DNA of 12,720 nt from a virus (taxonomy: Duplodnaviria; Heunggongvirae; Uroviricota; Caudoviricetes): the IMG/VR virus record IMGVR_UViG_2684622619_000004; one strand, given 5' to 3'. This document shows positions 3,001 through 9,000 of the stretch, piece by piece. Made by a program: the position numbers. The number at the start of each line of letters is the position of its first letter. The first letter of the stretch is position 1.

Positions 3001-6000
3001 GCGCAAAAGTAAGTCTTGATGACGTGTTCCCGCCGGAGCACAAAGCCGCTTAATAAGCGGAGCCGCTCTTTGTAACAACGGACATTCGTCCTACGTCGCT
3101 GAAAAGCGAGTCCCAAGATATCTGACCAACTAAGGCCATATGCGTTTCCACGCATACCTTTCAACTAACTATTCACTATTGGAAATCTTAAGAAATGGAA
3201 CGAACAAGTTACAGCAAACTATCACAGCGCGACGTTGATCGCGCAGAAACAGATTTACTCATCAACCTGTCAACGCTTACACAGCGCGGTCTGGCAAAGA
3301 TGATTGGCTGTCATGAATCGAAGATAAGCAGAACGGACTGGCGGTTTATTGCTTCGGTCTTGTGTGCTTTCGGAATGGCATCAGACATCAGTCCGATTAG
3401 CAGGGCTTTTAAGTATGCGCTTGATGAAATCACAAAGAAAAAATCCCCGGCTGCCACCGAGGATTTTAAGCAAATTGATATGCAATTCTGAGGGAATTAC
3501 TGGATCAATCCACAGGAGTAATTATGACAAAACGTCGTAAGAAATACCAGGAAAAAGAAGAGATTCGACACCCTGATTCACCTGAGGGATTAGTGGTAGC
3601 CGCAGCAAATAACAGGGCGTTCGCAGAGCGCCTTGTTGGTGTTTACAGACTAGCCAAAGCAGGAGTGAAACATGGGCGTCGTTAAGTTAGCTGATTACAG
3701 GCCTCAACTGGAGGTCGTGGAGCATCGCGTGGCAGATACCGAAGATGGTTTCATGCGCGTTGCTAACGAGATTACCGACAGTCTGCTGATGGCTGATTTA
3801 ACCGTCCGGCAGTTGAAGGTGATGCTCGCTATCATGCGCAAGACATACGGATTCAATAAGCCGATGGATCGACTCACAAACACGCAGATAGCAGCCATGA
3901 CAGGTATTCATCACACTCATGTTTGCGCTGCCAAGCGCCAGCTTATTGAGCGTAAATTCCTCATTGCTGATGGCGTGAAAATCGGAGTGAACAAGGTGGT
4001 TTCTCAGTGGATTAGCCAGGACAGCTTAACATTAGCTAAAACAGCTAATAAAACATTAGCCAAGTCGGCTAATGGGTATAAGCCAAGTCAGCTAAACACA
4101 AAAGACAATATACAAAAGACAATAAATACAAATACCCCCTTACCCCCTAACGGGGATGGCGATGGGCAGGTTAAACCTGAACGTCGCAAGGCAGAACGAA
4201 TCGACTACGAATCCTTCCTGAACGCCTACAACACCGAAGTCGGTGACAGACTTCCACACGCTGTTGCGGTCAACGAGAAACGAAAACGCCGCCTGAAGAA
4301 AATTATCCCGCAACTGAAAACGCCAAACGTGGACGGTTTCAGAGCGTATGTCAGGGCGTTTGTGCATCAGGCCAAGCCGTTTTACTTCGGAGACAACGAC
4401 ACGGGCTGGACGGCAGATTTTGATTACCTGCTGAGGGAAGATTCGTTAACGGGAGTTCGGGAAGGGAAGTTTGCAGACAGGGGGATTGCATGAGACAGGA
4501 TATCGAAGCTAGCGTTATCGGTGGCCTGCTGATTGGTGGATTAACTCCAACCGCCAGTGACGTTCTGGCAACGCTGGAGCCGGAAGCGTTTTCAATTCCG
4601 CTCTACCGGAAAGCCTTCGAGGTTATTCGCAAGCAGGCGAGAAACAGAAACCTAATCGATGCGCTGATGGTTGCCGAGGCGTGCGGAGAGGAGCATTTCA
4701 CGTCAATCCTGATGACCAGCAAAAACTGCCCGAGTGCCGCAAACCTGAAGGGATATGCCGGAATGGTCGCGGATAACTATCACCGCCGTCTGGTGCTGGA
4801 AATCATGGATGAAATGCGTGAACCAATCCAAAGCGGAACCATCGACGCATCGAGTCAGGCGATGGATGAACTTGTAAAGCGTCTTTCAGCCATCAGAAAG
4901 CCCCGTGACGAGGTTAAACCTGTACGGTTAGGGGAAATCATCACTGACTACACTGACACGCTTGACAGGCGTCTGAGGAACGGAGAAGAGTCAGATACCC
5001 TGAAGACCGGAATCGAAGAGCTTGACGCTATCACTGGAGGGATGAACGCAGAAGACCTGGTGATTATCGCCGCTCGTCCTGGTATGGGGAAAACCGAACT
5101 GGCGCTGAAGATTGCCGAAGGTGTGGCAAGCCGCGTTATTCCTGGTTCTGACGTCCGGCGCGGGGTATTGATTTTCTCAATGGAAATGAGCGCATTGCAG
5201 ATTGCAGAGCGAAGCATTGCCAACGCCGGGAGGATGTCGGTTAGCGTACTGCGAAATCCTGCATCGATGGATGACGAGGGCTGGGCACGTGTTGCTAACG
5301 GCATGAGTCAGCTTGCAGATTTGGATGTATGGGTAGTCGATGCTTCGCGGTTATCGGTCGAAGAAATACGCTCAATCGCAGAACGGCATAAGCAGGAAAA
5401 TCCAAACCTGTCACTCATCATGGCGGATTATCTTGGCCTGATTGAGAAGCCGAAAGCAGACCGCAACGACCTCGCAATTGCTCACATCTCCGGAAGCCTG
5501 AAGGCGATGGCGAAAGACCTGAAAACACCGGTTATCTCCCTGAGTCAGCTTTCGCGCGATGTTGAGAAGCGACCAAACAAACGCCCGACAAACGCAGATT
5601 TGCGTGATTCAGGAAGCATTGAACAGGACGCAGACTCAATCATCATGCTCTATCGGGAAGCGGTATATGATGAGAACAGTAGCGCCGCGCCATTTGCTGA
5701 AATCATCGTGACGAAAAACCGTTTTGGCTCGCTTGGTACAGTTTACCAGCGGTTCTGTAACGGACACTTTGTTGCATGTGACCAGGATGAAGCCAGACAG
5801 ATTTGCACAGCATCAAATGCACCTGCTGCGCGTGGCAGACGATATGCACAAGGGGCTGACGTATGACCATCTACATCACTGAGCTAATAGCAGGGTTATC
5901 GTTACTAATGGTTCTTACTGTATATATTATTAAGTATATTCTTTATGCGAATAAAAAAACTAATTGATCACGATGAGCTTCTGTCAACATTATCATATGA

Positions 6001-9000
6001 CTCAGAAACAGGAATATTTAAATGGCTAAAAACAAATTCAGTAGTAAGAGTAAAAGGTAGTATTGCTGGAGGTGTTAGTGGTGGTTATATATGCATTAGT
6101 ATAAATAATGTTTTGTATAAGGCGCATAGACTTGCTTGGTTCTATGTATACAAAAAATGGCCTCCTAAGTTTATTGATCATGTAAATGGGAACAGACTTG
6201 ATAATAGGATTTCAAACCTAAGACTGGCAACAGAAGAGCAGAATGCAAGAAACATTGTAGGGAATAGATTAAACACATCCGGTGCAATTGGAGTGTCTTG
6301 GTATAAGCCAACTGGCAGGTGGAAGTCTTATGTTGGTTATAAAAATAAGACAATATCGTTAGGGTATTTCGATAGCAAAGAAGATGCAGCATTCATAGCA
6401 GCACTAGCAAGAAAGAAACTATATGGAACTTATGCGAGTAAAGCACTTAATTGCGAGCATGAGCTTTTATCTCAATTTAATAATGATGAGGATAAACTTG
6501 CGGAATATCTTAAGGAAAAATATAAAAGGACTCGAAAGCGTGTTAAAAAAAGATAAAGGCCTGCTGGTAATCGCAGGCCTTTTTATTTGGGGGAGAGGGA
6601 AGTCATGAATCTGGACAAGCAAGATGCACAAACTATTAGCTCATACATAAGGGCATCAAGACCAGATTACAAAGGTCCGGTATTCGTAGATTTATCTCGC
6701 CTTGAATAGATTTACATGTGGAAAGCAAGGTTACTTACGCATTTTGTTATTCGAACGATGACTAGCAACATTACAAAACCAATGTAACTGGAAGAGGTGA
6801 ATATGAGCACACTCGCAGACCTTATTCATGCCGATATGGCTGAAGATGGAGCAAGGCGTAATAGGTACTGGAAATCATCGAGCCTTCCAGTTTGTGAAAG
6901 ATTCAATCACAGGCCAAAACCAAAACGTAGCCGACGAGACAAAGTGTTGAAAAAACTCATGCAAATTAACATGGCTGGTTTTGTCAGATTCGTGAGTGAA
7001 ACGACTAACGGTGATTGATATGGACGAATCAAGAAAGCAGTTTGAGGAATACGTTGCCAAAAAATTGAGATTACCATTCGAGATGATAACCGAGGCAAGA
7101 AATGGTGATAGGTACTTCGCATTTTCAAGCATGGATATTCGTCACTCCTTAAATGATTGGTGGGCTTTATGGCAGGCATCGCGAGCAGCTATTGAACTGG
7201 ATATCGACTGGCCCGAATCGAATGACGACCTTTGGAAAGATGGTGAAGAAGGTGCTTATGCGATGGGTTATGAGGATGGGCGTGACAAAACGGTAATTGC
7301 AGTAATGAAAGCCATCAGGGCCGCAGGAATCAAAGAAAAGAATTTCGATTAAGCAAATATCACTTCAATAAATCGCTTTTAAGGCATCACAATCGCTCTG
7401 TGGTGAGGTAAGCACGTGCAAGGTATACCGATAAGCAGCGAGAATGAAAAATGCGTCAGAATGCGTTTGAGGAGGTTTTAAGAAATGAGTACGATAGCTG
7501 AGCTTGTCAGGGCTAATTTTCGTGAAGAGTTGGTGCGTTGGTATCGGTATCGTTCATCGTCCAGTTTGCCGCTTGATGAGTTGTATGAGCATTCACCTGC
7601 CGCACGACGCTATCCGCGTGACCGTGTTCTTCGACGGTTGTTCAAACTCAACAATGAGTTTCAGCGCAACAGAATTATCCGGAGTCTGGATTTTAAGTGA
7701 AGGAGTGAGCATGAGCGACCTATCATTAACCCAGCCAAAGCTAAAAGAATGTCCGTTTTGCGGCGGTAATGCTCGTCTGTGGGTTGAGGCCGGAATAAAT
7801 ATTGATGTGTGGGGCTATGCAGAATGTGACCTCTGTGAAGCCAGGGTGGCATGGGCACCATCAGTTGCTGCGGCTACTGAAAAATGGAACCGGAGAGCAG
7901 GAGATGAAGCAAACCTTTCTGCTTCGCAACGAAGCAATCAGAAATAACGCCATAGACGCCATTCTCTCACTACCCATCGACGACAAGTCACCCCACGAAG
8001 TCCACGTTAAAGAACCCAAGCGCAGCAAAGCGCAGAATGACCGCATGTGGCCGATGCTGAACGATGTTTCGCGTCAGGTGCTATGGCATGGTCAACGGCT
8101 GGCGCCGGAAGACTGGAAAGACCTGTTCACTGCCCTGTGGCTTAAGACCAAAAAACTGGAGCAAAGAAGTGCGCCTGGTATCGACGGTGGCGTTGTCATG
8201 CTTGGCGTGCGTACCAGCAAAATGCGAAAGGCCAGCATGACTGAGCTTATCGAAATCATGTTCTGGTTCGGCTCAGAGCGCAACGTGCGGTGGAGTGATG
8301 ACTCCCGGCGAGAGTATGAATGGTCACAACGAAAAGGGAAGGCTGCATGACTATCAAATCAAATACGCCAGCACACGACAAGGACTGCTGGCAAACGCCG
8401 CTCTGGCTTTTTGATGCGCTGGATATTGAGTTTGGATTCTGGCTGGATTCAGCTGCGAGCGACAAAAACGCTCTGTGCGCTCACTGGCTAACTGAGGCTG
8501 ACGACGCGCTAAATTCTGAGTGGATAAGCCACGGTGCAATCTGGAATAACCCACCGTACAGCAATATCAGGCCGTGGGTGGAAAAAGCCGCTGAGCAGTG
8601 CATACAACAGCGACAGACGGTAGTGATGCTTGTGCCAGAGGATATGTCTGTCGGATGGTTCAGCAAGGCTCTGGAGAGTGTTGACGAAGTTCGCATCATC
8701 ACTGATGGACGGATTAATTTTATCGAACCATCGACAGGGCTGGAGAAGAAGGGAAACAGCAAAGGCTCAATGTTGCTGATTTGGCGACCGTTCATCAGTC
8801 CTCGACGGATGTTTACTACCGTATCCAAAGCGGCATTGATGGCGATCGGGCTGGGCGTCAGGAGGGCTGCATGAGGCGACAGCGACGAAGTATCACCGAC
8901 ATCATCTGCGAAAACTGCAAATACCTTCCAACGAAACGCTCCAGAAATAAACGCAAGCCAATCCCAAAAGAATCTGACGTAAAAACCTTCAATTACACGG

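Follow-up and report, generated by a model that had tools for sequence, protein, structure and literature searches.

Evidence for a free-standing HNH-AP2 homing-type endonuclease gene inserted at the ninA-tR2 site of lambdoid phages

Most work on homing endonucleases has concerned virulent phages. Here we describe an HNH-AP2 endonuclease gene of temperate lambdoid phages, carried by an AT-rich insert in a stretch of 12,720 nucleotides (nt) from a Caudoviricetes virus record (IMG/VR IMGVR_UViG_2684622619_000004). This whole stretch, hereafter called the window, spans the immunity and replication genes and the nin region of a lambdoid prophage (Escherichia coli O157, Stx-type), and the positions of its features are collected in Table 1. 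We conclude that the gene is very probably a free-standing HNH-AP2 gene of homing type that has inserted in ninA-tR2, that is, in the small backbone gene ninA with its embedded terminator tR2. It is a typical selfish phage gene; gene and family are already known and annotated (public records name the gene “HNH endonuclease”, “putative endonuclease” in HK022 and “homing endonuclease” in PA28), and the analysis refines the anatomy of the locus and reveals no new kind of system. In the literature searched, which did not cover the older subscription papers on HK022, we found no HNH-AP2 member at this insertion site, and no paper that describes an insertion in ninA-tR2 or tests its activity.

The endonuclease I-HmuI nicks one DNA strand. 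Its structure (PDB 1U3E, from Bacillus phage SPO1) is monomeric and extended, with an N-terminal three-stranded DNA-binding sheet followed by a beta-beta-alpha-metal HNH motif, and the insert protein resembles it in these structural respects. The two proteins are only 19% identical in sequence, and I-HmuI lies within a group I intron, whereas the insert gene is free-standing. In addition, the C-terminal part of I-HmuI consists of helical and helix-turn-helix DNA-binding modules, in place of which the insert protein has an AP2 domain and a basic helix.

Most described HNH-AP2 proteins belong to virulent phages (T4-like, Felix O1, ICP1 and T5-like). In PMC10448857, which cites Magnani et al. 2004, HNH-AP2 proteins are treated as a recognised homing endonuclease family, and the “IPA-HNH” genes of Vibrio phage ICP1 share with the insert gene an N-terminal HNH_3-type nuclease and a C-terminal AP2 domain. 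Both are free-standing phage genes of sporadic distribution. The insert lineage differs from the rest of the family in being tied to a single site, the ninA-tR2 of temperate lambdoid phages, and in being <60% identical to all other members in the phage collection that we searched. There, relatives below this level occur in 2344 phage records, many of them annotated as HNH homing endonuclease, and this exact lineage is present only in 19 lambdoid records.

The free-standing Seg and Mob genes of phage T4, known for “intronless homing” and marker exclusion, provide a third comparison. Like them, the insert gene is a bare open reading frame (ORF) between genes, at or in conserved sequence, and is polymorphic for presence or absence between related phages. 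Co-conversion of flanking sequence is expected for such genes, and a G marker 5 nt from the insert junction does travel along with the insert. However, the Seg proteins are GIY-YIG enzymes and the Mob proteins belong to a different HNH lineage, and their homing was shown experimentally in co-infections of virulent phages, whereas the insert resides in a temperate phage, has a probable route of expression from pR, and is a predicted homing element.

A moron is expressed from the prophage and brings along a promoter and a terminator. Like the lambdoid morons of Juhala and Hendrix, the insert adds an AT-rich gene to some lambdoid phages, HK022 among them, and is missing from others; an earlier note on this DNA had offered a moron as an alternative to a selfish element. 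However, no sigma-70-like promoter site was found on the + strand between 5500 and 7500 (a promoter scan being a weak test), and the adjacent terminator is the tR2 of the phage backbone, so that the element has none of its own.

The insert occupies positions 5895-6559 (665 base pairs (bp)), and consists of a 50-nt leader, the endonuclease ORF and 3 nt. Its ends are defined by alignment to the empty site of Nil2, which reads ATGACCATCTACATCACTGAGTTAATAACAGG^CCTGCTGGTAATCGCAGGCCTTTTTATTTGGGGGAGAGGGAAGTGA (the caret marks the insertion point): the window matches Nil2 to ...ATAGCAGG, continues with 665 extra bases ending ...GATAAAGG, and then resumes with CCTGCTGG.... In Nil2 and 933W the empty site is 78 bp long and runs ATGACC...GGGAAGTGA; in the Nil2 record it contains the annotated 25-codon gene ninA. 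In the window, the start codon of ninA overlaps the helicase stop (ATGA). The insertion point, AGG^CCTGC, is located inside this ORF at the 5' foot of the tR2 stem. Since AGG is present at both ends of the insert, the junction can slide by 3 nt, and the alternative placement, 5892-6556, ends exactly at the endonuclease stop codon. A target-site duplication was considered and rejected, because the 8-9 nt similarity between the junctions (ATAGCAGG versus ATAA-AGG) needs a gap and a mismatch in AT-rich sequence; only the AGG repeat is treated as real microhomology.

The junctions are identical across all complete copies of the insert. Complete occupied copies measure 717 nt between the ninA start and the far end of the tR2 stem (718 nt in one frameshifted copy, locus L134), and the distance from the ninA start to the tR2 stem measured in an empty site (L101) is 52 nt. 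On the left, the 32-nt 5' stretch of ninA is common to empty and occupied sites and stands behind unrelated upstream genes; on the right, 6560-6603 are identical in empty and occupied sites, and the sequences diverge into different downstream modules just beyond.

The GC (guanine plus cytosine) content of the insert, 33.4%, is the lowest of all 665-bp segments of the window (mean 46.6%, standard deviation 4.2), and the GC content at third codon positions of the endonuclease ORF is 24%, compared with 39-62% in ten neighbouring genes. Thus the comparison of composition and codon usage that the earlier note called for bears out its AT-rich island between the helicase gene and the nin region, and the comparison with related prophages places the island's junctions at a fixed point, the 5' foot of tR2. 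The extent that it gave to the island (5863-6709) does not stand in full: only the 665-bp insert is foreign, and by the empty-site alignment the terminator and the ends of both small flanking ORFs belong to the backbone.

The tR2 hairpin (6555-6582) has a 10-bp stem followed by a T-tract at 6580-8 (z = -3.2), and together they form a strong intrinsic-terminator-like site. Folding of the empty version gives a stem of 8 bp, the additional outer bases of the left arm in the occupied version being supplied by the AAAGG that terminates the insert. The strong terminator that had been reported at the end of the island is therefore present, but it belongs to the backbone and corresponds to the conserved lambdoid tR2, which is also found at empty sites and is annotated in Nil2, Lahn1, Nil3 and 933W. 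A scan of 5500-7500 against Rfam with a permissive E-value produced two chance-level matches only, over the terminator.

The insertion leaves this terminator intact, and also leaves a short translated ORF that runs from the helicase stop into the endonuclease start. This is the hydrophobic 34-residue ORF of the earlier note, which is indeed ATGA-coupled to the helicase stop and overlaps the HNH gene (by 23 nt, in a different frame), and which we reinterpret as a chimera, ninA', of ninA and insert-encoded codons. Its match to phrog_5907 is restricted to residues 1-12. The ninA' peptide is the same in 9 of the 10 alleles described below, and only the frameshift allele of L134 differs. We also asked whether its insert-encoded tail, which is hydrophobic and then basic like that of NinA, is a selected replacement C-terminus, but make no such claim, because in AT-rich DNA an open frame of 24 codons with this kind of composition is not unlikely.

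The likely role of ninA' is that of a route for translational coupling. The endonuclease gene has no Shine-Dalgarno sequence and starts inside ninA', and for these reasons its translation is probably low and dependent on coupling. Folding around the endonuclease start (5900-5990) reveals no excess of structure over shuffled controls (z = +0.84), and thus nothing points to sequestration of the ribosome-binding site in a hairpin.

Beyond the terminator, the second 34-residue ORF of the earlier note is also present, with GGGGGAGAGGG as the strong Shine-Dalgarno sequence upstream. It is outside the insert and is a truncated form of a 60-residue backbone gene: it matches phrog_21123 at model positions 1-34 of 60, and ends in a nonsense change (GAG>TAG) at 6707-6709. 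Full-length versions of 60 residues are present in loci L032 and L115, both of which have an empty site. The TAG truncation is common to all seven loci that have the window's downstream module.

The endonuclease has 203 residues, arranged as an I-HmuI-like N-terminal sheet, the HNH domain, the AP2 domain and a basic C-terminal helix. The HNH domain matches Pfam PF13392 (HNH_3) with 56.1 bits, well above the gathering cut-off of 24.8, over residues 58-102. The AP2 match (28.7 bits) falls under its cut-off of 33.3, but the AP2 fold is confirmed structurally, and its position C-terminal to the HNH domain is the arrangement that characterises the HNH-AP2 family. The protein also matches phrog_99, “HNH endonuclease” (E=9.2e-72); NCBIfam has no match for it or for either NinA peptide. 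The beta-beta-alpha-metal fold is present, and nine residues (D78, H79, N81, D86, N87, N91, L92, R93 and N103) are invariant across 44 homologues, with N100 nearly invariant (at least 90% conserved). In the sequence alignment, D78, H79, N91 and N100 correspond to D74, H75, N87 and N96 of I-HmuI. The catalytic residues are therefore intact, not degenerate, and the earlier identification of the gene as an HNH/AP2 homing-type endonuclease is upheld.

In a large protein collection, from which the 44 aligned homologues were drawn, the lineage forms a tight cluster of 521 members at at least 90% identity. The next relative, a chimeric metagenomic protein, is 62% identical overall, and about 1600 more proteins, mostly HNH_3 proteins with or without AP2, are found at 35-50% identity. 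A fusion between lineages was observed in another lambdoid phage (L148, 3920-4516 of Logan contig SRR10380363_203). Here ninA' and about the first 250 bp of the insert, reaching roughly to the equivalent of window position 6140, continue in frame into another HNH-AP2 gene, which is richer in GC and lies directly against rusA; tR2 and the whole intervening nin region are absent. The structure looks like the product of recombination between two HNH paralogues, giving a nin-type deletion.

These features also bear on whether the protein might have another role entirely, either as a packaging-associated HNH protein of the HK97 gp74 type or as a domesticated, nuclease-dead AP2 regulator that binds DNA. 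HNH proteins are known in some phage packaging machines (Kala et al. 2014, as cited in PMC12315714), and AP2 domains can act purely as DNA binders. However, fold and motif are of the I-HmuI/HNH_3 type, and the intact catalytic residues argue against a nuclease-dead protein. [quoted passage not shown] Position and sporadic presence effectively refute the packaging role, which had been mentioned as an alternative in the earlier note, and we regard this pair of explanations as extremely improbable.

The 23 complete copies of the insert represent 10 alleles, and the full 203-codon frame is maintained in 22 of them; the remaining copy, L134, has a frameshift in an A-run. There are 19 variable positions, nine synonymous and ten non-synonymous. 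In codon 59, two of the non-synonymous positions are always changed jointly (AAG to TAT, without a stop), and so the non-synonymous events number nine. Relative to 130 synonymous and 479 non-synonymous sites, this corresponds to a ratio of about 0.3 (for a small sample of related copies), which only suggests that the gene may be under purifying selection.

Decayed copies were also seen. In Stx2 phage 1717 (L005, 1559-4000), and in the same way in Stx2a_F349, an ISEc8 element has entered the insert 6 bp from its left end, duplicating 8 bp (GGTTATCG), and it separates the endonuclease gene from ninA' and the upstream operon. In E. coli O114:H49 strain 90-9280 (L006, 633-3062), IS100 truncates the 5' end of the endonuclease gene, and the surviving pieces have been given two annotations, an HNH pseudogene and an “AP2 domain-containing protein”; an extra 89-codon ORF is located between the helicase gene and ninA in this locus. 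Together with the L134 frameshift, such decayed copies are as expected for a selfish gene.

The distribution of the insert was determined with positions 5896-6552 as the query in 5426 complete E. coli genomes. It is present in 126 of these, at 138 places and with 97.4-100% identity, while the uninterrupted 78-bp site is found in about 1890 genomes, and in 505 genomes the 3' end of the window's own helicase gene is joined to an empty ninA-tR2. Some genomes have two or three copies (for example MB9-1, Show KS 470-1 and STEC799), each presumably in its own prophage, and such a pattern would be consistent with transfer among co-resident prophages. Of the phage-collection records, 403 match the site and 19 of these are occupied; the site is empty in, for example, 933W, VT2-Sakai, phage 21 and many Salmonella P22-like phages. 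The insert is thus found at about 5% of ninA-tR2 sites, and the presence-absence variation is that predicted by the earlier note for a recently acquired element, in place of uniform carriage by related prophages. When the left junction was sought in 185,579 species-representative genomes, the single match was an E. coli contig, a result that says little beyond the restriction to E. coli.

The same cassette with the same junctions is found behind at least 6 unrelated upstream modules and ahead of at least 7 unrelated downstream ones. In HK022 the cassette is located behind a different helicase gene (HK022 P), in PA28 behind a lambda-type ren, and in an E. coli prophage from Gambia behind a DnaC-like module, with ninB directly downstream. 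For a systematic comparison we used an IMG/VR sample of 121 empty and 24 occupied loci (25 occupied with the window included), the flanks of which (300 bp on each side) were clustered into 7 upstream and 11 downstream types. The 25 occupied loci span 6 of the 7 upstream and 7 of the 11 downstream clusters, in at least 13 combinations, several of which also occur empty. The 121 empty loci show 44 combinations, so that ninA-tR2 is a mosaic joint even when empty.

The junction is accompanied by a diagnostic base. In the IMG/VR sample, position 5890, which lies within codon 10 of ninA, carries G in each of the 24 occupied loci, whereas 120 of the 121 empty loci have A. This linkage fits co-conversion, and fits equally well a G that was part of the transferred segment. 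The lone empty site with G, locus L102 (GAGTTAATAGCAGG^CCTGC), could be an ancestral recipient allele or the footprint of a precise loss of the insert. One pair of loci is near-isogenic: occupied L139 and empty L101 are identical over 2.5 kb upstream and 317 bp downstream, and differ only in the insert itself and in A>G at the marker position. This pair indicates that the cassette was recently and cleanly exchanged, with the adjacent marker, in an otherwise identical phage.

We consider it reasonably probable that the insert is an active homing endonuclease gene, with expression from pR, ninA-tR2 as its target and transfer by recombinational copying. On this account the gene, which appears to have no promoter of its own, would share the pR transcript of O and the helicase gene, ahead of tR2, such that the enzyme would be made early in lytic growth and be silent in the lysogen. 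Low-level translation would be achieved by coupling to ninA', which is in turn ATGA-coupled to the helicase gene. The enzyme, presumably monomeric, would then bind a long asymmetric site in the uninterrupted ninA-tR2 of another phage, co-infecting or co-resident, from which the gene is missing; the predicted recognition site is placed in these 78 bp because they are the only sequence common to all recipient backgrounds. The empty site would be nicked or cut, probably with a nick of one strand by analogy with I-HmuI. Phage or host recombination would repair the break from the occupied allele, with replication or repair copying the cassette from the occupied genome, and in this way the gene and its adjacent G marker would be copied into the empty site. 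The occupied allele should be protected, as the insert splits the recognition site.

Several points weigh against this account. The nuclease activity, the target site and the unidirectional conversion are all things that we infer, and the promoter scan on which part of the expression route is based is a weak test. The L139/L101 pair gives no direction, and might reflect gain of the insert or conversion back to empty. The homology that flanks the insert is as short as 32 bp on one side and about 45 bp on the other, and no occupied Salmonella phage was found among the 92 Salmonella phage records that match the site-spanning query. An efficient homing element might also be commoner than the observed occupancy of only about 5%. 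Finally, the empty loci are already mosaic, and ordinary recombination around a static insert gives the same picture.

These last two points lead to the main rival explanation, in which the insert is passive cargo, a former homing endonuclease gene or a single illegitimate arrival that no longer promotes its own transfer, and modules are exchanged around it because the conserved ninA-tR2 linker serves lambdoid phages as a general recombination joint. The shuffling of flanks at empty sites (44 of the possible pairings of 7 x 11 clusters), the low occupancy and the essential confinement of the lineage to E. coli (one match in the species-representative genomes) would all be accounted for in this way. 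However, a useless gene is not expected to keep its ORF intact in 22 of 23 copies, with an excess of synonymous changes and with its catalytic residues preserved. The near-isogenic pair, a recent exchange limited to the cassette, and the two to three copies, presumably in different prophages, of some genomes also argue against a static insert. While the same data fit both explanations, the intact, apparently constrained ORF and the clean isogenic pair favour activity, and we consider passive cargo possible but unlikely.

Conservation of the gene might instead reflect a benefit to the phage that carries it, for example through a competition or exclusion nuclease, perhaps as a moron-like accessory gene, that acts on rival lambdoid phages, on the host or on a satellite. 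Purifying selection, as suggested by the sequence pattern, would be consistent with such a role, and the predicted early-operon expression would coincide with the replication of a rival. In addition, nuclease genes at exchange boundaries are linked to phage-phage and phage-satellite conflict in PMC10448857, and PADLOC gives a weak match, though to a model that is itself named “homing endonuclease”. On the other side, there is no defence-system context and no partner gene of such a system nearby. With no promoter or terminator of its own, the gene falls outside the usual definition of a moron, and a lysogen probably does not express it. Moreover, if rivals were cut at ninA-tR2, the mechanism would amount to homing with marker exclusion. 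We therefore view a separate competition function as very unlikely.

As a homing element, the insert would represent a clean case in temperate lambdoid phages, among them the laboratory phage HK022 and the Stx-converting phages of E. coli O157:H7. The candidate target can be stated exactly, as 78 bp with a classical tR2, and many natural alleles exist in both the empty and the occupied state. If active, the enzyme would combine site-specific nickase or nuclease activity with recognition by an AP2 module, and would provide a mechanism for the exchange of modules at the replication/nin boundary of Stx phages. A more far-reaching proposal, which is speculative and in our estimation doubtful, is that ninA-tR2 is a homing site whose breaks during co-infection or co-induction help to make the replication/nin mosaic joint, or else that the insert alters the function of tR2. 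In the latter case, the lengthening of the stem (8 to 10 bp) could change N-independent read-through towards Q, and hence stx. Moreover, a terminator that is embedded in a translated ORF would give way to one directly adjoining the stop of an ORF with poor translation; according to PMC4824070, tR2 is strongly repressed if a translated gene ends a few base pairs before it.

Table 1. Features of the insert, its site and the surrounding genes (window coordinates)
Feature	Position	Strand	Remarks
5' remnant of ninA	5863-5894	+	32 nt: 10 codons and 2 nt of codon 11; aligns to Nil2 ninA
Chimeric ORF ninA' (34 residues)	5863-5967	+	10 ninA codons and 24 insert-encoded codons
Marker base G	5890	+	5 nt left of junction; ninA codon 10 ACA -> GCA
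HNH-AP2 endonuclease gene (203 residues)	5945-6556	+
HNH domain	6116-6250	+	residues 58-102
AP2 domain	6284-6427	+	residues 114-161
tR2 hairpin plus T-tract	6555-6590	+	backbone; terminator scan and folding
3' remnant of ninA and conserved linker	6560-6603	+	includes GGGGGAGAGGG, ribosome-binding site of the next gene
Truncated backbone ORF	6605-6709	+	outside insert; 34 of 60 codons; phrog_21123 match
DnaB-type replicative helicase gene	4490-5866	+	backbone, outside insert; Pfam DnaB_C E=9.5e-78 and DnaB N-terminal domain
cI-type repressor	2068-2769	minus	ORF list and family scan
cro and cII			between cI-type repressor and replication protein O in gene order
Replication protein O	3672-4493
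Two paralogous DUF7301 genes	6803-7018 and 7485-7700		71 codons each; 680 bp apart
ORF of unknown function	6996-7352		phrog_343 match; between the DUF7301 genes
NinB	7802-8350
Dam methylase	8320-8874
NinG	11539-12162

In the region around the insert (5400-7100), the window matches prophages of E. coli O157:H7 strains with 100% identity, and Stx-converting phages, SH2026Stx1 and Stx2a_WGPS4 among them, have the identical sequence. Towards its right end, positions 11210-11259 are a run of 50 N. On the left of this run is a partial second copy of the NinG 5' region (10922-11209, 81-97% identical to 11581-11877), and on its right 11260-11387 are a 98% copy of 8931-9058. The arrangement looks like a scaffold gap or a collapsed repeat in the assembly, and because of this suspicion the ORFs at 10889-11311 and 11182-11382 are considered unreliable. 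A tandem repeat of a different kind is found at 9515-9634, within a 254-codon ORF (9328-10092), where three to four units of 30 bp encode a repeated peptide motif; the repeat-bearing ORF is followed downstream by another ORF at 10161-10889.

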